Positions 533-58,994 of a DNA stretch of 64,000 nt are shown in pieces. The stretch is taken from assembly GCF_009834535.1 (NCBI RefSeq), contig NC_045696.1, positions 70,496,001 to 70,560,000 on the forward strand, in the 5' to 3' direction. The notes under the pieces are model-generated. The model had not been told where the DNA came from. It made no database searches and worked only from the letters and a program-made list of their open reading frames with translations. Source of the stretch: Camelus ferus. Lineage: Eukaryota. Within the stretch, counting starts at the first letter, position 1; each line of letters begins with the position of its first letter. The translations under genes were made by a program, and so were the position numbers.

Positions 533-579
533 CTTGGATCAAGAAGACTCCTCAAAAATTTGAAAAGCAAAACCTGGTT
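533..579 (-). CDS. VPS8: VPS8 coding exon (NQVLLFKFLRSLLDP + AG), 47 nt
   Basis: attcag|AAC CAG...CCA AG|gtatgt; phase 0-2. Confidence 0.93.
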
Positions 580-4467: not shown

Positions 4468-4557
4468 CTGAAGTTTTTTAATGACTGTTTCAATCTGTTC
4501 AGAAAAGTGAGTAGCAACCAGCTCTGCAGCTTTACAAGGCTTCAGGGACACAAGTTC
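4468..4557 (-). CDS. VPS8: VPS8 coding exon (ELVSLKPCKAAELVATHFSEQIETVIKKLQ), 90 nt
   Basis: ttccag|GAA CTT...CTT CAG|gtaaat; overlaps ORF 4369..4551. Confidence 0.95.
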
Positions 4558-5369: not shown

Positions 5370-6302
5370 AATACATCTCAAAACAGAGAAGGTAATATCA
5401 CAAATGAAAAAGAAAATGTTACCACTGATCTTCGGACGTTAAAAAGAAACCGTTGTGAATTAATTTATGTCGAGAATTTGAAAATTTAAACGAAATAGTT
5501 ATAGTCCTAGAAAAATATAATTTACTAAAGTGATGTAAGAAATAGAAAACCTCCATTAATTTTTAACCACTAGAGGAACTGAATAGTTAAGAATCTTCCC
5601 ATATAAACATTCTGGGCCCAAATAGCTTCACTGGTAAGTTCTAGCAATCATTTAAGGAAGAAATATTTCCAACATTAAATCTCTTATAGAGAATAGAAAA
5701 GAAGAAACTTTTTCAACTCATTGTATGAGACTAACAAAATTTTGATACCTAAACCCAACAGAACAATGTAAGAAAGAAAAGGAAAATTAAAGATCAGTCT
5801 TAATCGTGAGCACTGACACAAACATCCTAAATAAAAACAAAATCCAACAATGTATAAAAAAGGTAATATATTAGCATCAAGTTACAGTATCCACAGAGTT
5901 CAAGGCTTGTTTAATATCAATAAAATTTATGACAAAAATACAATAAGGGAGAAAAGGTGATAAAATTTATTCATGAGAAAACTGTTAGCATACTAGAAAT
6001 AGAACACTTCCACAAAAATTATATAGTAAATATTGTACATTAGAAATAAAAATTTTTTAAATATTAACAATAGCACTATTGTGCTAAAAATATAAAGTTG
6101 TGATAGTAAATCTAACAGTCTAGAGATGAAAAATCTCTACCAAATGGTCATTAAATAGAAGACTCACAATGTAAAGATGTCAATTTAAATTAAAACTGAT
6201 TGATAGATTCAATGTAATCCCTATCAGAATCCCTATCAGAATCATAAGGTTAAAAAAAATTTTGGGTGTAACTTGACAAGCTGATTCTAAAATATATTTG
6301 GA
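5370..6302 (+). mobile_element. Ancient L1 (L1M-type) ORF2 fragment, interrupted by the younger L1 insertion
   Basis: Degenerate ORF2 motifs (ctgggcccaaatagcttcactggtaagttc; gattcaatgtaatccctatc; acttgacaagctgattctaaaat). The element continues at 10221. Confidence 0.75.
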
Positions 6303-9300
6303 GAGAGAAGCAAGATGGCGGAGTAGGACGCTTGTAGCTCACCCTCTCCCACAAATACACCAAAACTCACATCTACGGATCTACTCAGCCAACCAGAGCA
6401 CCTGCCGAACTCCGACAGAACATCTCCCTCTTCGAAAGACAAAGACGCCAAAAATCTGGTAGGAGAAAAGGGAAAAAGAAAGAAGAAAAAGCAAAACAGT
6501 GCGGGACCGATCCGGCGGGGAGGGAGCGGCAAAGAAGGACTGGCACTTGTTCACTGGGTCTCCCCCCTCCAGCAGAGAGGCCAGCAGGATGAAGGGGGAG
6601 CCTCCGAGGTTCAGATCCACCCTGAGCACTCCTTGACCGACAGAACTGAGTTAAATGGGCATGGAGGGTCCCCATGACACCCAGCCCGAGACGCGAGCCG
6701 GCAGCTGGGGGCCGGGACAGGCTGCCCGAGCTGGGCGGAGCACAGGGGCGGCTGCACTGAGGCAGCCGCAGGTGACTGCAGGGTGCTGAGTGCCGTGGCT
6801 GGGAGGGGATACAGAGCAGAACAACCTCAGTCCCCCATAAATTGCAAAAAAAGCAAAGCAATATAGCTAGTGTGCCCTGGGGGGAAGGGTGTCGTAGCCT
6901 TTTCTCTCCTCAGACCTGCGCTGCCATTATTGACGCTTCTCACAAGAAGAGAGAAGAGGGGCAGGGCGCAGCCACAGCCACCATTTCCTCCTGTGCGCAG
7001 CACCCAGGCCGGGGTGGGGCTGAGACCCGAATCCACACCTGGCGGCTCTGCAACCTTCTAGGCAGGACTGAGACTTGTTTACAGGCCGAGGCAGATAGGA
7101 TCTTTCTGCCCTGGCACCTCAGAGAACTTGTGCCGCCAAGACAAACAAGGAGCTGAGATTTGGCACGGAGCAGGAGCGGGACCATTCTGCGGTCTTCCCC
7201 CGAGCCTGCCTTTGGGGTGCCGACCTGAGGCAGAGCAGGCAGCTGCACAGAGCAGCGGAGCGACCGGCGCCAGGGAGAGGGCAGACAGCCACCCCACTTC
7301 CTGGCAGGAACGCAGCACCTGACCACAGTGCTGGGAGGGGGCGCTATCTGCCAACCTGCCTTGCCCGAGGGCAGCATCTGACTGCGGCATTGGGAGGGGG
7401 AGTGACCTGCCCGCCCACTCGGTAAGAGCTCAGCTCCTGACCCAGTGTTGGGAGGGGGTGCGATCTGCTAGCCAACAGCCACTGGGAGCAGCACAGACGA
7501 GGGCGCCAACAGAAGGCCTCTGGAAACAGCAAGCTGAGTTCGCGAAACAGGGTGAAGACACAAAGACCTCTCGAAAAAATCATTAAGAGCACACCCATCT
7601 CCAGGAGAACTAGATAACTGATACTCCTTAAGCCACAGTGCCAGAGAGATATGAGCAATATGAAGCAGCAGAGGAACCACTCCCAATTAAAAGATCAAGA
7701 GAAATCCCCTGAAAGCATGATCAAGGAAATAGACATTGATGGCCTACTAGATCAAGATTTCAAAAAAGGAGTGATCAAAGTACTGAAGGAACTACAAGAA
7801 ATAGTGTTTAGAGATATAAAATATGTCAAAAATGAAATAGAACCTATAAAGAACCAAATAGAATTAGTAAACTCATTTGCTGCGATGAGAGCTGAACTAA
7901 AGGCTGTACAGAGCAGGCTAGATAATGCAGAGGAACAAATAAGTGACCTAGAAGACAGGACAACAGAAAGCACCCAATCAGAACAGCTGAGAGAAAAACA
8001 AATAAAAAACAATGAAAACAATATAAGGGACCTATGGGATAATATAAAGCATGCCAATCTGTACATAATAGGGGTTCCAGAAGGGGAAGAAAGAACACAG
8101 GGGATTGAAAAAGTATTTGAAGAAATCATGACTGAAAACTTCCCAAACCTAAAGAAGGAATCAGATATCCAAGTACAGGAAGCTCAGAGGGTCCCAAACA
8201 GACCCACACCAAGGCATATCATAATCAAGATGGCCAGAGTCAAGGATAAAGAAATGATCCTAAAGTCAGCAAGAGAAAAACAAAGAGTGAGTTACAAGGG
8301 AACCCCCATAAGGCTTTCAGCTGATTTCTCTACACAAACACTACAGGTCAGAAGGGAGTGGCAAGATATATTCAAAGTCCTGAATGAAAAACAGATGCAG
8401 CCTAGGATACTCTATCCAGCAAGGCTATCCTTTAGAATAGAAGGAGAGATAAAGAACTTCACAGACAAGTAAAAACTAAAAGAGTTTAGCAACACTAAAC
8501 CTATGCTAAAAGAAATATTGACAGGTCTACTCTAAATAGAAAAGAAGCAGGATGCTACAAAAACGAGAAACTCATAACTGGAAAGGAGATAACTGCCATG
8601 AATTACAAAAAGAATAAACACAAAATTGTAAAAGAAAGACAACTAAATCATTAAGAGTGGGAGAGGGAAGGAAGGAAAGCTCCTGTGGAAAACAATATGG
8701 AGATCTCTCAAAAGACTAGGAATAGACTTACCATATGACACAGGAATCCCATTCCTGGGCATATATCCAGAAGGAACCCTACTTCAAAATGACACCTGCA
8801 CCCCAATGTTCATAGCAGCATTATTTACAATAGCTAAGACGTGGAAACAGCCTAAATGTCCATCAACAGATGACTGAATAAAGAAGATGTGGTATATTTA
8901 CACGATGGAATACTATTCAGTCACAAAAACTGACAACATAACGCCATTTGCAGCAACATGGATGTTCCTGGAGAATGTCACTCTAAGTGAAGTAAGCCAG
9001 AAAGAGAAAGAAAAATACCATATGAGATCACTCATATGTGGAACCTAAAAAAAAGAACATAAATACAAAACAGAAACAGACTCACAGACATAGAATACAA
9101 ACTTGTGGTTGCCGAGGGGGCAGGGAGTGGGAAGGGACAGACTGGGATTTTAAAATGCAGAATAGATAAACAAGATTATACTGTATAGCACAGGGAAATG
9201 TATGTAAGATCTGTGGTAACTCATAGCGGAAAAAAAAAATGTGACAATGAATATATATATGTTCATGTATAACTGAAAAATTGTGTTCTACACTGGAATT

Positions 9301-11720: not shown

Positions 11721-13565
11721 AAAAATCTAATGAAACATGTGTTATCCATATTGGAAAAACCATCTAAACTAGAGATTCTCTACCAGAATTCTAAGGATGG
11801 CTTTTAGGGTGTCTGTGAATCCCTGTATTTGTAAACAAAATTATGCATCTGAGTCTATGCACAATATTATGAAGCGCAGGCCCTAATGTTTCCTTAGATT
11901 CTCAAAAGAGGTCTATAGCCCCCAACGTGTTAAGAACCACTAATCTATACACTTTGTATACGATCTAAAACTTCATTATGAGGACATTTCCCCCACATAT
12001 TTAATGTTGATTTTATTTACATTACTAAAGCCACAGAAGTCCTTCAACACAAAGTCTATAGATTTCTATTGTGGCCTTACGAGGTATTAAAAAGCTCAAG
12101 GTGAAAATACGTGCAGATGTGGGGAAATACAGTCAGCAAAAATTACTGTTGTGCAGCAAAAATATTTCTTGCTTCTCCTGTATGAGTTTCCTGCTGAGTA
12201 ACTTGTTTGCTCATTGATTAATTCACCATGCTTCACATTCTGTAGAGAGATATAGCTTTATATTTGGATGTCTGGAGTCAATGTGCTCAAACCACTGCAT
12301 AATGCAGATGAAGTAAAATGAAGAATGAGCCATAATGTAACTATGGAGACTTAAAGGGAATGATGAAAGGGAAAACAATACAAAATGATTAAAGGGGAAA
12401 AAAGATATAATTCAAAATAGAAGAAAGTTTTCTTGGGTTCTTTCACCAAGATATATTGACATTGTTAGCAGGAATATGATAAGATTAAATAACATATATG
12501 TGTTTTCAATCCTGTAGATGAAAGTGTGGACATTACTTCAGCTTGCACATCTGATGACAGACTGTGCCACCTTTCACACCAGATGTTTCACATAAGACGC
12601 TGTTCATATTTCTGATTTTTATAAACTTTACAATCACTGGGACCTAGAGGTAAGTATTCACATTAGATGAAATGCTTTCTCAAAGTTTCAGAGCTCATCC
12701 TTTCTTACAGTGTTTCACATGTAAAAAAAGTTTAAAACATGTTGAATAATCCTATCTTTCACTACAGCTCTAAACCAATCACCAGAAGCTACCTCACCTC
12801 CTGATCCTTGGTACGAGGAGGAGGAAACTTTGTAGATATAAATGTTATTTCCAAAACTAGAATTACCTTAGCATCTTTCATTACTACTTTTTTTCAATAA
12901 TCAGTGACCCATAAAAGAGAACAGATTTCAACAAATCTCTAGCTCTGTTGATTTCTGAGGAATATTTTATGTTATAAACCTAATGAAACTAAAGTGAGGA
13001 GTGATTTGGGGGCCCCTTTTTAGAATGATCACATGCTCATCACATACATATTAGTCTTTCCATGAAGGCATCTAAGAGCATATTTTTTAAAAAGAACTTT
13101 TTGTTTCAAGTCAACCCTTGCATTCTTGTAAAACAGCATGCATAAACAAAACCAGAATCATCATCCAATAACATAAGGAAGGGAAGTACCTCAGAGAGAA
13201 CAACTCATTGCAGTAACATTTCTAGAATTCCATCAGGTGATGGGGGAATGGCTCCCATCATGTATCAGGGAAAAAGATCAGGAGTACTCTCAGAATCATT
13301 CTAACAACATTGTAAAAATCCACTAGTATTCTAGTTTGTCACTCAGCTGACTGAACATGGGTTATTTTCAGAAATCACAATATAATAAATTGTATATGAC
13401 ATACGCTTTACGAATATAAACATGAGGTGGAATAAATTATTTGAAAAAAGATGTTAATCCTAAAGCAAATCAATTTAATGACATCTGTCATAGCTTAATT
13501 AGCAAAAAACAATTTGGGAGATATCTGTACAAATGAAAGTTTTAAAAGCTTTGTTGAATAAGTAC

Positions 13566-13664
13566 CTCAATATGGTCCATTGCTTTCTGCCATACAGACT
13601 GCTTCTCCTCTGCACTGTGTCCAGGGATGGATAAGATATTGTGAATGTAGTTAAAGACTTCTTC
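13566..13664 (-). CDS. VPS8: VPS8 coding exon (EEVFNYIHNILSIPGHSAEEKQSVWQKAMDHIE), 99 nt
   Basis: cttcag|GAA GAA...ATT GAG|gtactt; phase 0-0, intact. Confidence 0.95.
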
Positions 13665-13919
13665 CTGAAGAGCACAAGGCAATATCATTCGTTCATTCAT
13701 TCCCTCCAGCAATATTTAGTCACCATCTACTATCTGTACCAGTCTTGGTACAATATCTATTATTTAGAGATGGAAAACATTTGCGGAAAGTTAACTGACA
13801 GAAGACTAACTCTAAAGAGAAAGAGTAATTGTTTAAAAGTTAGAGTAGATTTGCAGAAGTTGCAAATCTGTACTGATTAATTTTAGTCTCAATTTTATTA
13901 ACTTCATGAGTGAATATCA

Positions 13920-14420
13920 TACTTTTTGTCTTTGACGGTCCCTGCTCAGGTTCCAAATTTAATCTCAAGTTCCTCCTGCCTTAGTCTATTACGCTCCACT
14001 TATACTGACCATTGCTTCATTTATATGATCTCTCTATTCAGTTCCTTGAATGTGGGAAAAAAATTTCTCACCTCAGGAATTTGCACAGACTGTTCCCTAT
14101 ACTGGAACATTTTTTCCATTACTCTTTCCTTGACTGGCTTCTTATCAAATTCCAAGACTCAGTTTATATGTCATTTTATCTGAGATTCCTTCCTTGGCCG
14201 CTCTGTATAAGTCAGTTACCCAACTGTCCTCTAAAGTTGCACCCAGTTTCTCTAGCACTCATCATAATTTACAATTATATATTTGATTTTCTTATTGTCA
14301 GTCTCCATCACTAAACTATTAAGTTCTAAAACTGCAGGAAGGAACTATATGTCTGTTTTACTTATCAATATATACTTGGCTAATGGCAGGCATGCAATAA
14401 AAGCCTGTTGAATAAATGAA
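13920..14420 (+). mobile_element. L2 3' end fragment
   Basis: Ends with gcaggcatgcaataaaagcctgttgaataaatgaa, a typical L2 tail. Confidence 0.65.
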
Positions 14421-14553
14421 GAGAACCTTGGCTCAGTAAACACACGTCCAAATATTCCTACTGAAGTTATACCTACTGAGTACTTATTTCTATTTGGTAA
14501 AGGGAGGGGAGGAAACTGAGTAAGAACAAAGGTTAAAGCTCTTATGAATGCCC

Positions 14554-14634
14554 CTCTCTTAGTGGATCACATAGGTAGCAATCAATAATTTTGTCATATT
14601 GGTGTCCTTGTTCATAAATTCACAGATTTGATAG
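14554..14634 (-). pseudogene. VPS8: Apparently disabled VPS8 exon (homologous to YQICEFMYEREHQYDKIIDCYLRDPLRE) with a 4-nt deletion and no GT donor
   Basis: atctag|C TAT CAA ATC TGT GAA TTT ATG AAC... reaches TAA in the entry frame. Homology resumes in another frame (EQGHQYDKIIDCYLCDPLRE). The expected exon end is followed by GGGCAT, not GT. Confidence 0.85.
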
Positions 14635-15368
14635 CTAGATCATAAAAGGAAAAACTTCAGCGTACCAAGCAGACAGGTGGTTATTAGCTTATAAGATATT
14701 TGTTCAGGCAAAGAGGTTAATATTAAGGAAAAATAAATACAGAAGTGATTTCTACTGTTAAATGAAGTTACAGTATCTAAGGGAGATGAGTATCTGCCAT
14801 TCTTTTAAATACAGGTTTAAGGTGCTGCTGAATACTATGTAAAAAATTTCAAAGCTGGGTACAAAATAAGTGTTAAAGCAACAATGTGTCACATAAAAAT
14901 AGGTAATAAATTAGATATCAATTAATCAATTATATGAAGCTTCCTTGTTCAGAATTAAACATGTCAAATGAAATAGTCAATAAACTAGACAAACAGTAGT
15001 GCTAACCTATTGCATCTTACTTGCTATGCTAAATTCTGCTTTATTTATAATATATATAACTGTCAAAAATCTGTCAAAAATCTATCAAATACTATAGAAA
15101 TTCTAAGTAAAAAAACTAGTAATTCATAAAACTATTATCCCATTTTCATACTAAAACAAATGCACAAGCACTTCAAATTTACTTGCTGTTAATTTCTGTA
15201 AATCTTACTAACTTCTAGACTCAAAAGGCAAAAGCTTTCAGGTTATTGTTATACGCATAGCTTTTCTTAATTAAAAAATGACAAGGCATCAATAAACTGG
15301 GCTTCAAGTTAGAGAAATGTAATTTAATAGTTCTCTGGGGATTAACACATGGCTTCAAAACAACTTAC

Positions 15369-15452
15369 AACTCTGCTTTTTCTACCATCCGGATGAGCCG
15401 ACTCTCTTCAAACTGAACTATGCCTCCAGCCTGCAGCAGTTCTAAAAGGACC
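15369..15452 (-). pseudogene. VPS8: Apparently disabled VPS8 exon (homologous to VLLELLQAGGIVQFEESRLIRMAEKAEF) with an extra G after the acceptor AG
   Basis: aatattag|G GTC CTT TTA GAA...GAG TT|gtaagt is 84 nt, where frame requires 83. Joined to the phase-0 upstream exon it reads GPFRTAAGWRHSSV* (TGA). Confidence 0.8.
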
Positions 15453-15884
15453 CTAATATTTAAAATAAATGAGTAAGAACACTTGTAATGTACTTTTATT
15501 TACTAGCGCTTTAAGAATCCATGCAGCCACACAAACCATATCTTTTTTTCTTTTGTCTTACTATTCGCTGATTTTTCAGTTTGGCTTTCATGTATACAAG
15601 GGAATAGACTGCCATTATAACGTGATCATATTGTACTTAAGTCTAATAAAAAGATACAATAGCTCTATTTTTCCAACATGGAAGGAATGCCAGTGTTTGC
15701 AAACAAAGCCTTATTAGAACATCTAATTGACCCTCCCCACTAAGCTAAAAATGTCCATACATATTCTTTCAAGAAGCAAATTTTTGTCTAATGCTTTTAT
15801 GGCTTATGATTCTTCAAAATCTGTGGCCCATAGGCAGTATCCATGTTCATGTTTAATTTTTCATGTTTAAACGTGGAGTTTCTC

Positions 15885-16200
15885 ATACTACAGCATTATT
15901 CACAAGAGCCAAAAGGTGGAAACAACCCTAATGTCCATCAATGGATAAATGGATAGATAAAATATGGTATATAAATATAATTGAGTATTATTCATACTTA
16001 AAAAGGAATGAAATTAGGGTTTATCTATATATGGATAAAGCTTAAAAACATTATGCTAAGTGAAATAAACAAGTCAGCAAAGAACAAATACTGTATCAGT
16101 CCACTTATATGAGGAACCTAAAATAGTCAAATTCAAAGAGACAGAAAGTTTAATGATAGTTGTCAGGGGGCTGGGAAGTGGGTAACCAGGGAGTAAACAC
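15885..16200 (+). mobile_element. L1MB-type 3' fragment
   Basis: cagcattattcacaagagccaaaaggtggaaacaaccctaatgtccatcaatggataaatgg. Confidence 0.75.
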
Positions 16201-16369
16201 AGAAAATTGATTACTTTTAAGTTGAAATTTTTTTAAAGGCATAGAAGAAATAAAACCTCCAAACTCTACACTTCAGAACCCTAACTTAATTCATTTTGAG
16301 TATTATAATGTACTGTTGTAGAGAACAATGATGGAGTGAACCCATATGCTGGAAGCCTATTCAAATGCC

Positions 16370-16860
16370 ATTGCTGAAGCTGTCTTAACCAACTTACTGG
16401 AGCTGGTCGTTGCCTTTTCAGGAATGTTGTACGCCAGCTGTTATATGCAGGCAGTGTTAAAAACTGAATTATATAAACTTACAAAAATAAGTTAAGTTAA
16501 AAACAAAGGTAATTAATACCCAAACTCACTACTTCCTAATTATTTTACTGCATTTGACTGTGTATGCTCTCGAGGTCAGTTACTGCAGCTGTATCTGTGT
16601 TCTGGAAACACTATGTCAGGGGCAGTGATGCACATCTCTTCCCAATGCCACGTTCAGTGTGACATCCACTGGTAGATCAAAATCAGCCATGGTGGGAGTA
16701 CTTACACCGTGGAAACTGGCAAATGCTGTAAATCAGGGCTTGTCACATTTTTAAAGGGTTGTAAAACAAACAAAGAGTATGTGACAGAGACCATATGTGG
16801 CCCATATAGCCTAAAATATTTACTCTCTGGCCCTTTACGGAAAAGGTGTGCCAATTCCTG
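16370..16860 (+). mobile_element. MER63-like hAT remnant joined to a MER58-like terminus
   Basis: aaatcagccatggtgggagtacttacaccgtggaaactggcaaatgctgtaaatcagggctt is MER63-like. gcctaaaatatttactctctggccctttacggaaaaggtgtgccaattcctg is a MER58 end. Confidence 0.65.
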
Positions 16861-18349
16861 GTTAAGAAAGTGACAGAGCTGATATGACAGTCAAAGTTGA
16901 AAGTGTGCATGTCAGAATCATTATTTTGTAAATAGTACAAAAAAGTTAAGGAATTATTTTTCCAGTATTCAAAAGCTGTTATGCAATTCAGCAGAGAAGT
17001 CACATCACTGATGAATGAGTGAACTGCACTTTCATCTTGTTCACTTACAGAAATGAACACATCAACCAACATTCACGTCAGAACTAACCAGTTGTTAAAC
17101 TTTTATTAGCAAATCACTGGAAAATACTCAAATATACTGCATAAATAAATTCTGATACATAACAAACAGTTCAAGAGAAAGAGTGCTGGATTAGAAGGGA
17201 AGGATTTGGCCTCTAATCTTAGTTGTGACTTTGAGCAATTTACTGCGTCAGTTTTCTTTCTATATTCTAAAATTAGTGTGGGGAAAAAACCCACATAATC
17301 CCAAAGAGGATTCCCAACAACAGATTATTACTGTACTATGATTACTTTTAAAGGTCTGGCATCTACATTTAGGCTTGGTTTTTATTTCTGTTTTATTCAG
17401 CTATTTACATAAAAAGTTTTTATCATTTTATATAGCAACACCATGCATCACATGTTTCATTTTTCCTGCCAACAGAAAAATAAGGGCAAAATGAGGCATC
17501 CATGTTACTACATGCATTCAATATAATTTACGAGACAATCAAAATTTTAGCAGCTGTTCTCTTCCCTAAGACAGTCTGCAGCTGTCACGGAGCCACAGGT
17601 GTGCAGAGAAAGGGCTCACTGTTGCTATTTTACGTTCTTTATCTGAGTCTCATTCTCCCAGCCAGGCATTATTACCATATAGAATTAGCATAGCTCTCAA
17701 AATACTTAATTTTTGTAGCTTACTTGTCTGACAAAGTCTGGCTATCAAGTTTTAAAAGACTGGCTCTCTTAGTGCTCACAATTACAGTGGGTAAGCTTTT
17801 AAGAAATCCTACCCCCTGAAAGGACCCTCAAGGATAAGTAGAAAGAAGTGGTAATCAAACAGTTTCTTTCTCACAGTGATTAGTGAAGGGACAGACGGAC
17901 GCCAGCCTCCAGAAATGGCCAGCCCTAGTGCAGTGGGACTACAGAGCACGCCCCAAAACTGAGTGTCCCAAAACTCAGGATCCTGAAGACTCTCTGGTTC
18001 ATGGCCACAATAGCTAGGACTGGTGACCAGATTAATGAATCTGGTGGAAAGCAGGACACAACAGGTACTGACTGGTGCTACATAACAGAGAAGGACAGAG
18101 GACATATTCTCTGTGATGTCATGTTGAATGCAAGACAGGTCCCCGTCTGCCTGGGAATTTAGCTTCATATAGGCTTAAACTAACCACCACCCACACTATT
18201 TCCTTGTTGCCACTGTCTAGCTTAGTATTAGGGTCTGGCATAAGTCATTTCCCTCTTACGCCTCATGAGGTTTAGTACTGAAGGGTTCTTTCTAGATTAG
18301 CCTCTCTTCTTTCTCATTCTCTAGCAAAGAGAGTTCTAGCAGTTCATAC

Positions 18350-18406
18350 CTGCTGTCTTTCAGAGTGTCGGGAGTCATCGTCAGGACTACAGAGGAATTC
18401 GAGGAC
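18350..18406 (-). CDS. VPS8: VPS8 coding exon (VLEFLCSPDDDSRHSERQQ), 57 nt
   Basis: accag|GTC CTC...CAG CAG|gtatga; phase 0-0. Confidence 0.95.
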
Positions 18407-18689
18407 CTGGTCAAAGAAAAGGTATTTTTTATTAGATACCAGCTTGCACGCCACACCGCTGTCACAGTGTGACAAAACAGTAACGACCCTCTTTATATCA
18501 CCAACTCATTCCCACTCGGCTACAACACACACCACATCTGAGTGGCCCAGTACATGGCACAGCAGGCTCAGGTAGGCTAACGATGTAACACGCACCTTAC
18601 ACACACTTCTTCATTCTTTAGAAACCCGACTAGAAGAAAGCATCATCTATGTACCTTGACTTGCAGATTCCTGACACCACGGACCAAGC

Positions 18690-18957
18690 AAAGCATAGAC
18701 TTTGGAGTCAGGCCACTTGAACTTGAGTCCTAACCTTATTAATGCTTAATAACCACATTTATTGCTAATAATAACACTTATTAAGCATGCCCTGGATGAG
18801 TGACTGAACATCTCTGGGCTTTAGTTTCCTCATCTACAAAATGGAGGTAACAACTATTCCAATTTCAGAGCTGCTGGGAGCACTGCATTAATATATACAC
18901 ATGTAATGTGGAACAGAGCGTGGCACTATGAAGTGCTCAATAAATGTTGGTCATTAT
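18690..18957 (+). mobile_element. MIR SINE
   Basis: Core ctctgggctttagtttcctcatctacaaaatggagg and tail aagtgctcaataaatgttgg. Confidence 0.75.
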
Positions 18958-19458
18958 ATGCAACTTTCTCCAGATAAAAAGTATTTTCTTTCTGTGGATA
19001 CATAGGAGGTACTTAACTGGGATTAGGAGATACCTTCAAAGTCATTTCCTCAAAGTAATCTCTCCTCCAGATGATCAACATCACAGTCTTACTACCAGTG
19101 AGATGGGTGACTCTTAAATTGGAAAATTCTTGAGCAAAGAATTCTAGACAATTTAGAGCAACAGAGTAATAGAGAGAACAGAATCTCTATAAACCAATCT
19201 CCACAAACCATACTCCCATGATACCAAGTTACAAGGCAAAATTATACTACCCAGACACAACATTAAAAAAAAACACACACACAACAATTTAGATTCAATT
19301 TGGACTCAATTTAGATTCAAACTGAAACCTGAACAGGTTTCTACCTGATATGGCATTTACCCAATAGGCTATTATATTAAGAAACTGTGTAATCGAGTGA
19401 TTTTTTCTATGAACAGTAAATAAAAACAATTCTAGCTCTTATGATTAAAGACACTCAC

Positions 19459-19578
19459 CTGATCAAAAAGGGTTCTGTTAACAAACAAGGTGTTGTCAGG
19501 CTTTGCAAGCTGCCGGGCAAGGAAGGTAAAGAGACACCCTACTTGTGAGGGAGTAAAATCTGAATTCTCCACCATAAC
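19459..19578 (-). CDS. VPS8: VPS8 coding exon (VMVENSDFTPSQVGCLFTFLARQLAKPDNTLFVNRTLFDQ), 120 nt
   Basis: catcag|GTT ATG...GAT CAG|gtgagt; phase 0-0. Confidence 0.95.
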
Positions 19579-20239
19579 CTGATGAGCAAAAGAGATCATT
19601 TATTTATTCAATATACCATCTGCTTTGACACACACAAAAAAACACAATTAGAAGAGAGAGGTGGGGGGAACCTCATTACTAAAGACTCACAAAAAGATTC
19701 TTTTATTGACTGTGTAACAGTTGAGATCAGTGTCATTTAGAGAAGGAACACAACTACTTGCACACTTGGAACGGAAAACGTTTTAGTCACTTTTGGCATA
19801 TTTCTAGGTATAACCTGGATAAAAACTGAATTGTTAGATAAAGGTGGATTTCAAAGAAATATTAATCATATTTCCCTCTGGAATTCTTAAAACAGAACCT
19901 AAAATTAATTTAAATTAAATTAAAGTAACCCTACTAAAATTTGTCCACCAACACAGAAAGAAGGGAATTTGCTTTGGGGTCTGAAAGTAGGATAACTTGA
20001 GAGGGAAGATATCTCAGGAAAGAAGTCAGCTGGCCCTTGAACCAATGAAGTGAATGATTTCTGCCTTGTCTATAAGCAGTTTCCTGGTTTCACATAAAAG
20101 GCTTTTTACAAACACAGACAGTTATCAAGTCATAATCACTCCTCTGATTAAGTGCCCTCTCAGCTCCTGAGCACCTACTGCTATGAGTAAGACACTGTGG
20201 TAGAGGCCTTGTAGGCAATTCTGAACCAGAAAGCAAGGT

Positions 20240-23997: not shown

Positions 23998-24069
23998 TTT
24001 CAACAAAATATCCACAATACGTTGTTGATATTCTACAGCTTGCTTGTCATTTTTAAAATCTTCAAAAGT
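23998..24069 (-). CDS. VPS8: VPS8 coding exon (TFEDFKNDKQAVEYQQRIVDILLK), 72 nt
   Basis: ttttag|ACT TTT...TTG AAA|gtaagt; phase 0-0. Confidence 0.95.
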
Positions 24070-24620: not shown

Positions 24621-25238
24621 TTTCTTTCTTTCCTTCTTTTTCCTGCCTCCAGTTTATTTGTACAAACAGCACAGGTAGACATGAGCCCCATGCAGACAGC
24701 AGCCCAGGGGTCACATTAGTCCTTCTATCCTCACATCAATAGATGAAAGCCTCTACTCTAGAGCCTTTGTAGGGGCCTGGGCGCCTTTGGGAGCTGGAGC
24801 CGCAGCTGTGGCCTTGGTCTGAGCCTCCTCCTTGGCCTTTGGCTGAAAGAGCCTGAGACACTTGGCGATGCGGGCAGGAGCACATTTCCCGAGCTTGGGG
24901 TGAGCAATGAAGGCAAGTCGATTGAGTTCGCGGCTGCTGACCTTTGGGATCTTGGGCTTGACCTCCTTGGGCTTTACGAGAGCCTTAGCCTCGGCACGTG
25001 CGCTCGTGGCCTTGGCTTTGTTGGCCTGCATCTTCTACAGGCCCCTCTTGTTGTGCTTCTTGGCAAAGCGCATGTTCCTCAGGAACTTGGGGTCCACCCC
25101 CTTAAGAGTTCCGTATCGTTGCGATCGGGGTTTTTTGATGCTGTTTCTGTGCCATTTTCGGGACTGCTTGTTTGTGGTGTGGTTCTTCGACTTGGCCATG
25201 TCTGCACCAGAGCCGGGAGATCCCAAATCCTCCTTTCG
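24621..25238 (-). pseudogene. RPL29: RPL29 processed pseudogene (ATG at 25199, premature TAG at 25037-25035, stop at 24753, AATAAA and a degenerate poly(A))
   Basis: Intronless [29 protein letters not shown]...[16 protein letters not shown]...[11 protein letters not shown]...AHPKLGK...QAPTKALE. Minus-strand AATAAA at 24653-24658 and A-rich tail at 24621-24641. Confidence 0.96.
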
Positions 25239-25985
25239 TTTTTTTTTTTTAATTGAAGTACAGTCAGTGAAGTACAATTTCTGGTGTACAGCACCATATC
25301 CCAGTCATGCATATACATACATATATTCATTTTCATATTTTTTCTCATTATAGGTTACTACAAGATATTGAATATAGCTCCCTGTGCTATACAGAATAAA
25401 CTTGTTTTTTAAATCTATTTTTAAATATAGTAGCTAACATTTGCAAATCTCAAACTTCCAAATTTATCCCTTCCCACCCCTTTCCCTGGTAACCGTAAGA
25501 CTGTTTACTATGTCTACAAATCTATTTCTGTTTTGTAGGTGAGTTCATAGTGTACATAGTGTCCTTTTCTTTTTTTTTAGACTCCACATATGAGTGGTAT
25601 TATATGGTATTTTTCTTTCTCTTTCCAGCTTACTTCACGTAGAATGACAGTCTTCAGGTCCATCCATGTTGCTGAAATGGCATTATTTTATTCTTTTTAT
25701 GGCTGAGTAGTATTCCATTGTATAAATATACCACAACTTCTTTATCCAGTCATCTGTTGATGGACATTTAGGTTGCTTCTATGTCTTGGCCATTGTATAT
25801 AGTGCTGCTATGAACATTGGGGTGTGTGTATATCTTTTCTAATTAGAGTTCCCTCTGGATATATGCCCAGGAGTGGGACTGCTGGATCATATGGTAAGCG
25901 TGTTTTTAGTTTTTTGAGGAATCTCCATACTGTTTTCCATAATGGCTGCACCAAACTACATTCCCACCAGCAGTGTAGGAGGGTT
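25239..25985 (-). mobile_element. 5'-truncated young L1 (ORF2 end, 3'UTR and poly(A)) fused upstream of the RPL29 retrocopy
   Basis: T-tract at 25239-25250, then the reverse complement of the same L1 3'UTR family seen at 8680-9360 and 29691-30240. Confidence 0.9.
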
Positions 25986-34502: not shown

Positions 34503-34622
34503 CAGTGCCAATACATTTAGAAATTCTCTTGTGTCAAAATGTAGCAAAGTTCGAACATAGGGATAGATTTCTTCCTCAGGGGAAGCTTCTGCTGAATGCA
34601 GGCGAATTAGAAATTCAAAAAC
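34503..34622 (-). CDS. VPS8: VPS8 coding exon (VFEFLIRLHSAEASPEEEIYPYVRTLLHFDTREFLNVLAL), 120 nt
   Basis: ttgcag|GTT TTT...GCA CTG|gtaaga; phase 0-0. Confidence 0.95.
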
Positions 34623-34909: not shown

Positions 34910-34982
34910 CTGGTTTTTAACCAAGGGCACAAGATCTTCAGGGATGTCACCAAGGGGATAGGCACGACCTGCCAGACAACAG
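34910..34982 (-). CDS. VPS8: VPS8 coding exon ((S)CCLAGRAYPLGDIPEDLVPLVKNQ), 73 nt
   Basis: ttgtag|C TGT TGT...AAC CAG|gttagt; visible in ORF 34871..35062. Confidence 0.95.
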
Positions 34983-36582: not shown

Positions 36583-36625
36583 CTAATATATACAAGAAGC
36601 TTGTTGCCCATAACAACTTGCTCAT
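36583..36625 (-). CDS. VPS8: VPS8 coding exon ((D)EQVVMGNKLLVYI + AG), 43 nt
   Basis: tttag|AT GAG CAA...ATT AG|gtaaga; phase 1-2. Confidence 0.93.
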
Positions 36626-47613: not shown

Positions 47614-47665
47614 CTGTTAGCGTCTTCCCTGCATTCAGTGGAGGAGCAATGACTCGGAAAAGTTT
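47614..47665 (-). CDS. VPS8: VPS8 coding exon (KLFRVIAPPLNAGKTLT + G), 52 nt
   Basis: cgcag|AAA CTT...ACA G|gtatta; phase 0-1. Confidence 0.93.
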
Positions 47666-50091: not shown

Positions 50092-50181
50092 CTCCATTGG
50101 ACTAATAAATTCATTCATGCCTCTGTTGTACACATAGATCATAGCATCATATAGCCGATTTTCCCAACACATGAGAACTAC
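50092..50181 (-). CDS. VPS8: VPS8 coding exon (VVLMCWENRLYDAMIYVYNRGMNEFISPME), 90 nt
   Basis: tacag|GTA GTT...ATG GAG|gtaaga; phase 0-0. Confidence 0.95.
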
Positions 50182-53446: not shown

Positions 53447-53669
53447 CTGCTGAATATCTAGGCTGGTGATATCCATATGTACAATGAGGGCTTCCACATT
53501 TTCCATTAACTTTTTATCTTGGAAATGAACAAGCAAGTCTTTCATTACCTGAGGTGTGATCCCCAACAATTTATCACTTAAAATATATGGTTCAAGGCAC
53601 TCCAAAAACACTCCTTTGGCCACAGAATTCTCACTTAATTTGTCATACATCTGGCTAAATAAAAGATCC
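53447..53669 (-). CDS. VPS8: VPS8 coding exon (DLLFSQMYDKLSENSVAKGVFLECLEPYILSDK...MDITSLDIQQ), 223 nt
   Basis: Lies within ORF-track entry 53435..53719. ttacag acceptor, gtaagt donor, 1+222 nt. Recognisable Vps8 central-domain peptide. Confidence 0.96.
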
Positions 53670-58947: not shown

Positions 58948-58994
58948 TTTCGCTGTAGCAGAAGGCAGTAATCCACTATGACAGGCACCATATC
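58948..58994 (-). CDS. VPS8: VPS8 internal coding exon (DMVPVIVDYCLLLQR + AA), 47 nt
   Basis: Minus strand ctacag|GAT ATG GTG...CGA AA|gtaagt. The peptide matches mammalian VPS8 as I recall it. The phase-2 end joins the next exon (AA|G = Lys). Confidence 0.93.

Follow-up and report, generated by a model that had tools for sequence, protein, structure and literature searches.

VPS8 is the Rab5-side subunit of the endosomal tether CORVET, and in its orthologues a Vps8 beta-propeller, a central Vps8 TPR region and a Vps8 RING domain follow one another in this order. Lineage-specific in-frame exon loss is recognised where exons have been disabled, their joint removal keeps the reading frame and the gene is otherwise constrained; the lesions are then expected to be common to close relatives or, when the loss is recent, to be few. 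A candidate for such a loss was proposed in the VPS8 gene of Camelus ferus, in which two consecutive exons encoding 56 aa appeared to be disabled among intact neighbours, and the original prediction was that this lineage makes a VPS8 protein without these residues. Here we report that the observation itself is correct: in this assembly two neighbouring VPS8 exons are broken and the rest of the gene is intact. Comparison with a second Camelus sequence suggests that the camel lineage as a whole probably does not share the 56-aa loss.

The VPS8 gene in the camel assembly

The window analysed here, that is, the whole stretch of 64,000 nucleotides, corresponds to C1:70496001-70560000 of the 2.09-Gb assembly and contains no N bases. 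Tblastn searches seeded with the mammalian VPS8 proteins P0084 and P0045 placed 15 VPS8 coding exons on the minus strand of the window, covering residues ~576-1010 of the 1426-aa P0084. Counted from the exon carrying the ATG, these are exons 20-34. Thirteen of them are intact: exons 20 (58948..58994), 21 (53447..53669), 22 (50092..50181), 23 (47614..47665), 24 (36583..36625), 25 (34910..34982), 26 (34503..34622), 27 (23998..24069), 28 (19459..19578), 29 (18350..18406), 32 (13566..13664), 33 (4468..4557) and 34 (533..579). All 13, as defined by these coordinates, possess an AG acceptor, a GT donor and consistent phases, as had been stated in the original prediction. Exon 29 (57 nt) ends in phase 0 and exon 32 (99 nt) starts in phase 0; they are the upstream and downstream partners, respectively, of the junction that would form if the two exons between them were skipped.

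The complete coding sequence of VPS8 was rebuilt from 46 exons distributed over 224 kb, among which the only non-canonical splice site is the GG donor of exon 31. The remaining 44 coding exons, outside of the broken pair, are open and bordered by canonical sites. Frame or splice lesions thus number three in the 165 nt of the pair, as opposed to none in the ~4.1 kb of the other 44 exons. A genome-wide protein search recovered the orthologous locus as 46 collinear exon matches over 213 kb, and this was the single VPS8 locus. When the pair is skipped, the gene retains a frame from Met to stop of 1370 aa (1426 minus 56), the product of which is ~97% identical to VPS8 of horse, beaked whale, dog and a primate. 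Three Pfam families, PF23410, PF12816 and PF23412, match the orthologue P0084, and the exons encoding these regions are present and open in the camel genome.

Two further features of the window lie apart from the coding exons. The intron between exons 26 and 27 carries on its minus strand (24756-25304) an intronless sequence similar to ribosomal protein L29 (Pfam PF01779, E = 1e-20 on 25038-25199). Since a stop separates its two open stretches, this sequence is probably a processed pseudogene. Region 6001-8000 has a GC content of 0.50, compared to ~0.33 around it, and contains long open stretches in several frames; no Pfam match was obtained for 6943-7467.

Lesions in exons 30 and 31

Both broken exons lie on the minus strand. 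Exon 30 has the form of a pseudo-exon of 84 nt rather than 83 (15369..15452). Its AG acceptor and GTAAGT donor are kept, and a reading that starts from the AG runs into TGA. The lesion is an extra G in the GGG run after the A of the acceptor (15451..15453), a +1 frameshift by which the conserved frame comes to begin one base past the AG. In P0209, a predicted C. ferus protein described below, and in 229 of 230 other proteins, exon 30 begins in phase 0 with Val. Exon 31, also a pseudo-exon, measures 81 nt instead of 85 (14554..14634); its AG acceptor is kept and its donor is destroyed by a GT>GG transversion (14552..14553). A deletion of 4 nt between 14613 and 14612 has removed a Tyr codon together with the first base of a Glu codon. 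The ancestral size of exon 31 is taken to be 85 nt because this is the length of the orthologous exon of a distant vertebrate, which is bordered by AG and GT on the metagenomic contig L018.

In addition to these disabling lesions, the pair carries four amino-acid replacements. The Ala present in 58 of the 58 proteins of our vertebrate panel and in P0209 is replaced by Val (GTA, 15383..15385), for which parsimony indicates a C>T change at 15384 as the likeliest cause. Arg Glu, found in both the consensus and P0209, has become Gln Gly (CAA GGA, 14605..14610), by parsimony through CGA>CAA at a CpG and GAA>GGA. Finally, Cys (TGT, 14569..14571) occupies the position of an Arg that is shared by 53 of the 58 panel proteins and P0209, which parsimony attributes to CGT>TGT, again at a CpG. 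After correction of the frame, the replacements relative to the vertebrate consensus are therefore A>V, R>Q, E>G and R>C, in addition to the missing Tyr codon.

Counted over its 165 nt, the pair shows seven differences, of which two are indels. The five substitutions, as reconstructed by codon parsimony, comprise one transversion and four transitions, two of the latter at CpG (CpG>TpG/CpA); GCA>GTA and GAA>GGA are the transitions not classed as CpG. Both indels are found in contexts prone to slippage, the additional G lengthening a run of G and the 4-nt loss falling in short direct repeats. Such a substitution spectrum, combined with slippage-type indels, is the pattern of germline mutation and speaks, indirectly, against random consensus error. 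The lesions thus look like real and old germline mutations that built up over a long period. With silent changes allowed for, the pair has diverged by ~4%, from which we infer, at usual mammalian rates and with a wide error, an age of the order of 20-40 million years.

The extra G at the acceptor, the 4-nt deletion revealed by comparison to the L018 exon, the GG donor and the four replacements relative to the vertebrate consensus, two of them CpG-like, had all been described in the original prediction and were reproduced here. The same is true of the consequences for the reading frame. If the pair is not skipped, read-through meets two stops, after which the frame is restored, because +1 and -4 sum to -3. 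If both exons are skipped, phase 0 of exon 29 is joined to phase 0 of exon 32 and the frame stays open. That only the joint loss of the two exons (83 + 85 nt) preserves the frame is likewise supported for this assembly.

A rescue through cryptic sites was also considered. An AG within exon 30 (exon start at 15430) combined with a GT within exon 31 (exon end at 14571) would yield an open insert of 42 codons. This solution, found by eye, requires two unproven sites and alters 14 residues, and was set aside as unlikely.

Search for a second copy of the pair

A further copy of the pair was found neither in the window nor in the 224-kb gene, and searches of the 2.09-Gb assembly with a 1-kb DNA query or with the 56-aa consensus likewise gave none. 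The proposal that the interval between 13665 and 18349 holds no further copy is hence borne out and extends to the whole gene and assembly. Self-comparison of positions 13000-19700 and comparison of the pair segment to the 224-kb gene uncovered no internal duplicate, and the second, functional pair by which an intragenic duplication would be recognised at the locus is missing from this assembly. A second VPS8 locus, which the original prediction had named as a sign of a recent duplicate, was not found anywhere in the genome, the extra matches covering only residues 1003-1063. Neither a second locus nor another copy of the pair nor an internal duplicate being present, both whole-gene decay and a duplicate pseudogene locus were rejected: the sole VPS8 locus has 44 other coding exons intact, with no lesions among them, and constraint is kept outside of the pair.

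The extra matches deserve a separate description. A piece of VPS8 of 1.4 kb, consisting of the exon for aa 1010-1060 and flanking intron and located outside of the window (C1 ~70481500-70482900), recurs in at least 10 further places, namely three on C36, two on C20 and one each on C10, C3, C30, C15 and C31, with 78-84% identity to the gene. Among the copies that were retrieved, L019 (C36), L020 (C10) and L022 (C20) have more than 2.2 kb in common at 91-92% identity, and L021 (C3) has ~1.3 kb in common with the others at 83-86%. From its sequence, this set resembles a fragment of the gene that was taken up by a family of dispersed repeats or segmental duplications.

Constraint on the 56 residues

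In order to compare constraint within and outside of the pair (residues 876-931 in P0084 numbering), we assembled a vertebrate panel of 58 VPS8 proteins of full length, of which 49 are placental-like and 9 are not. Since its members were picked by length (1410-1460 aa), the panel is biased to forms containing the pair. Among these proteins the 56 residues hardly vary. Private changes of the camel sequence at conserved sites amount to 4 of 53 in the pair versus 6 of 1196 elsewhere (Fisher p = 5e-4), the latter six being conservative. The comparison of constraint between exons that the original prediction had suggested, carried out here through private changes, thus supports relaxed constraint on the pair in this assembly. 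Among 230 proteins that span both neighbouring exons, 229 include the full pair and one includes 43 of the 56 residues.

Predicted VPS8 isoforms of three carnivores, cat (P0019), fur seal (P0065) and sea lion (P0066), lack 89 residues in frame, among them those encoded by the same two exons. They fall outside of the 230-protein count because they do not contain the downstream neighbouring exon. The likeness to the camel case is incomplete: here exons 30-32 are all dropped, and the isoforms are alternative predictions from genomes in which the exons are intact and not decayed. Such omissions indicate that some annotation pipelines see skipping at this position in species with intact exons.

An intact pair in a second Camelus sequence

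The exon for residues 1010-1060 carries several private substitutions, and its use as a query resulted in one match of 100% identity, to P0209, a 486-aa 'hypothetical protein CB1_000660003 [Camelus ferus]'. This record is a partial, ab initio-looking model of poor quality and was compared at the protein level. The model begins within exon 28 and omits exon 29; four spurious exons derived from introns stand in for several true ones, and the RING exons are missing. Outside of the pair, P0209 is identical to this genome in all common true exons, and 125 of the 126 residues of its four intron-derived exons are also equal, which indicates that the two Camelus genomes are very close. Neutral divergence between them is estimated at ~0.4%, with an upper bound of ~2% (1 difference in 126 codons); judged by these residues, the genome of the window might belong either to C. 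ferus itself or to a sister species.

Residues 40-95 of P0209 agree with the consensus of the pair at all 56 positions, and their frame is unbroken. The loss can therefore not be common to the whole genus, and the part of the original prediction that ascribed a VPS8 without the 56 residues to 'this lineage' is contradicted. Between the two camel genomes, the encoded amino acid differs at 4 of 54 codons of the pair, as compared to 1 of 126 codons derived from introns (Fisher p = 0.029), a count that leaves aside the two indels and the change at the donor. If 0.3 to 1 substitutions are expected on a single branch, five or more would occur with a probability of 1.6e-5 to 3.7e-3. Given two nearly identical genomes, seven differences in 165 nt are too many to postdate their split; the lesions are thus neither common to this close relative nor few. 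Near-invariance of the residues in vertebrates and their integrity in P0209 argue that selection has kept them, and it appears well supported by these protein comparisons that a nearly identical camel genome holds an intact pair under selection.

Further searches were aimed at camel transcripts and camelid relatives. No transcript-derived camel VPS8 was recovered by protein searches, among them a near-length search for which exon 28 and its intron flanks served as the query: all 48 matches of the latter were open reading frames from exon plus intron in the genomes of other vertebrates, and none was a spliced form. Camelid members were absent among the matches listed for VPS8 protein clusters (6, then 10), including 15 of a cluster with 913 members, and none of 10 intronic open reading frames around the pair was present in the protein collection by exact look-up. 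Scanning of metagenomes with the 56-aa consensus returned 594 pattern matches, of which one was confirmed (exon 31 of the distant vertebrate on L018), and no camelid DNA. The share of sampled words was 0.84-0.87 in 14 DNA-like sequencing runs and 0.07-0.52 in RNA runs, shares that are not counted here as evidence. A superficial literature search for VPS8 in connection with camels, Camelus, alpaca or exon skipping found nothing relevant.

Structural context of the pair

To locate the 56 residues in the protein, an AlphaFold2 model was built for the C-terminal 855 residues of the bat orthologue P0010 from 30 aligned sequences. The model has a mean pLDDT of 62.8, with averages of 62-90 for the blocks of 10 residues that cover the pair. 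The best structural match to the model is yeast Vps8 in CORVET (8qx8_F, E = 1.6e-9), at a sequence identity of 16%. The pair corresponds to model residues 306-361, which include helices 321-330, 334-343 and 347-356 and, of helix 300-312, the final seven residues. This mapping, proposed in the original prediction as a check, resolves the 56 aa into four short helices, or two hairpins of the alpha-solenoid. Deletion of the pair in the model connects residues 300-305 to helix 363-373. Skipping would thus remove two hairpins and, as it joins two helix segments, the register of the solenoid could survive according to the model. In a HMMER alignment, residues 852-862 of yeast Vps8 fall on the first helix encoded by exon 31, the site of the 4-nt deletion. 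In the CORVET cryo-EM report (PMC11187117), this yeast helix is described as one of two that contact a loop of the Vps11 beta-propeller.

Origin of the broken exon pair

Any explanation has to accommodate an old decayed pair, an intact pair in a very close genome and the presence of only the decayed pair in this assembly. All three can hold if the genus has a copy besides the decayed pair. Our preferred reading, to which we would assign slightly less than an even chance, is that this assembly or haplotype holds only an old pseudo-exon pair while the genus keeps a functional one. Exons 30 and 31 would be present here solely in an old mutated form, with the added G, the 4-nt deletion, the GT>GG change and the four amino-acid changes. 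The genus would have, or would until very recently have had, a functional copy, as the 56 residues are unchanged throughout in another Camelus genome. An old duplication within the gene, for example, might have produced two units, of which this assembly shows only the decayed one; the functional unit may be lacking in the assembly itself or in the haplotype that was sequenced, the latter for instance owing to a deletion variant. We infer the existence of this second copy; with no further pair or internal duplication in the assembly, the postulated duplicate is unseen. If the haplotype is real, its sole open product would presumably be spliced without both exons, giving a 1370-aa VPS8 devoid of two helical hairpins. 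That some camels do carry a haplotype with the old pseudo-pair as their only exons 30 and 31, and build CORVET with such a shortened VPS8, strikes us as rather improbable.

Under a different reading, the decayed pair would be the only copy in this camel species, its exons would be skipped, the 1370-aa protein would be the normal product and the C. ferus record would be misleading. The confinement of lesions to the pair in an otherwise intact and conserved gene, the excess of private changes within it and the lack of another copy in the assembly are all in line with this possibility, as is the modelled deletion, in which helix segments join after the removal of two hairpins and the solenoid register could be maintained. 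It is nevertheless unlikely, being at odds with the intact pair of P0209 in a nearly identical Camelus genome and with a number of differences far too high for the time since such close genomes split. Moreover, exon 30 has a usable acceptor and a consensus donor, and would then act as a poison exon. The conflict with P0209 vanishes if the lesions are assembly errors at exons that are truly intact, arising in a poorly polished or gap-filled patch or from polishing with misplaced reads, and small indels, which account for two of the seven differences, are what long-read consensus errors usually look like. Yet the other five are substitutions, four of them transitions and two at CpG, which is not expected of random consensus error; the 13 other exons of the window and indeed all 44 other coding exons are free of errors, and the assembly offers no paralogous source of misplaced reads. 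We give this explanation only a small chance. Three disabling lesions in one gene could also mean that VPS8 is a young unitary pseudogene whose first lesions happened to fall in these two exons. This is hardly credible, considering that the remaining 44 coding exons have open frames and canonical sites, that the few private changes at conserved sites outside of the pair are all conservative, and that no second VPS8 locus could take over; in addition, the pair makes up ~4% of the coding sequence, and the chance of three random lesions in the same pair is ~0.0015.

Comparison with known systems

Should the decayed pair be the only copy in living camels, it would represent a natural experiment on how much of its solenoid CORVET can spare: a natural in-frame deletion, compatible with life, of a nearly invariant region in a core endosomal tether, in which one of the lost helices would be, by alignment, homologous to the yeast Vps8 helix that holds the Vps11 beta-propeller. 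A more general lesson is that a single record from a sister genome can contradict an exon-loss call that seems compelling in one assembly, where the flanks are clean, the skip is in frame and substitutions are in excess; reads and relatives are needed before such calls are believed.

With the class of lineage-specific exon losses the locus shares the joint removal of exons that keeps the frame (1370 aa) in a constrained gene, the lesions being confined to the pair and the rest intact; it differs from the class in that the lesions are not common to the close relative that encodes P0209, nor few as expected of a recent loss (seven differences against 0.3 to 1). P0209 itself represents the same VPS8 locus in another Camelus genome, equal to this one in 125 of 126 intron-derived residues, and differs in that all 56 residues of its pair are intact. 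To yeast Vps8 (8qx8 chain F) the likeness is more remote: the helix that contacts Vps11 in the cryo-EM description (PMC11187117) aligns with the start of exon 31, at a low identity of 16% and with the contact known from yeast. The closest counterparts are the mammalian VPS8 proteins (P0084, P0045 and P0034), with ~97% identity over 1370 residues, the same 46-exon layout by protein alignment and the domain order of the orthologues. Unlike in these, the exons for residues 876-931 are disabled in the present camel assembly.
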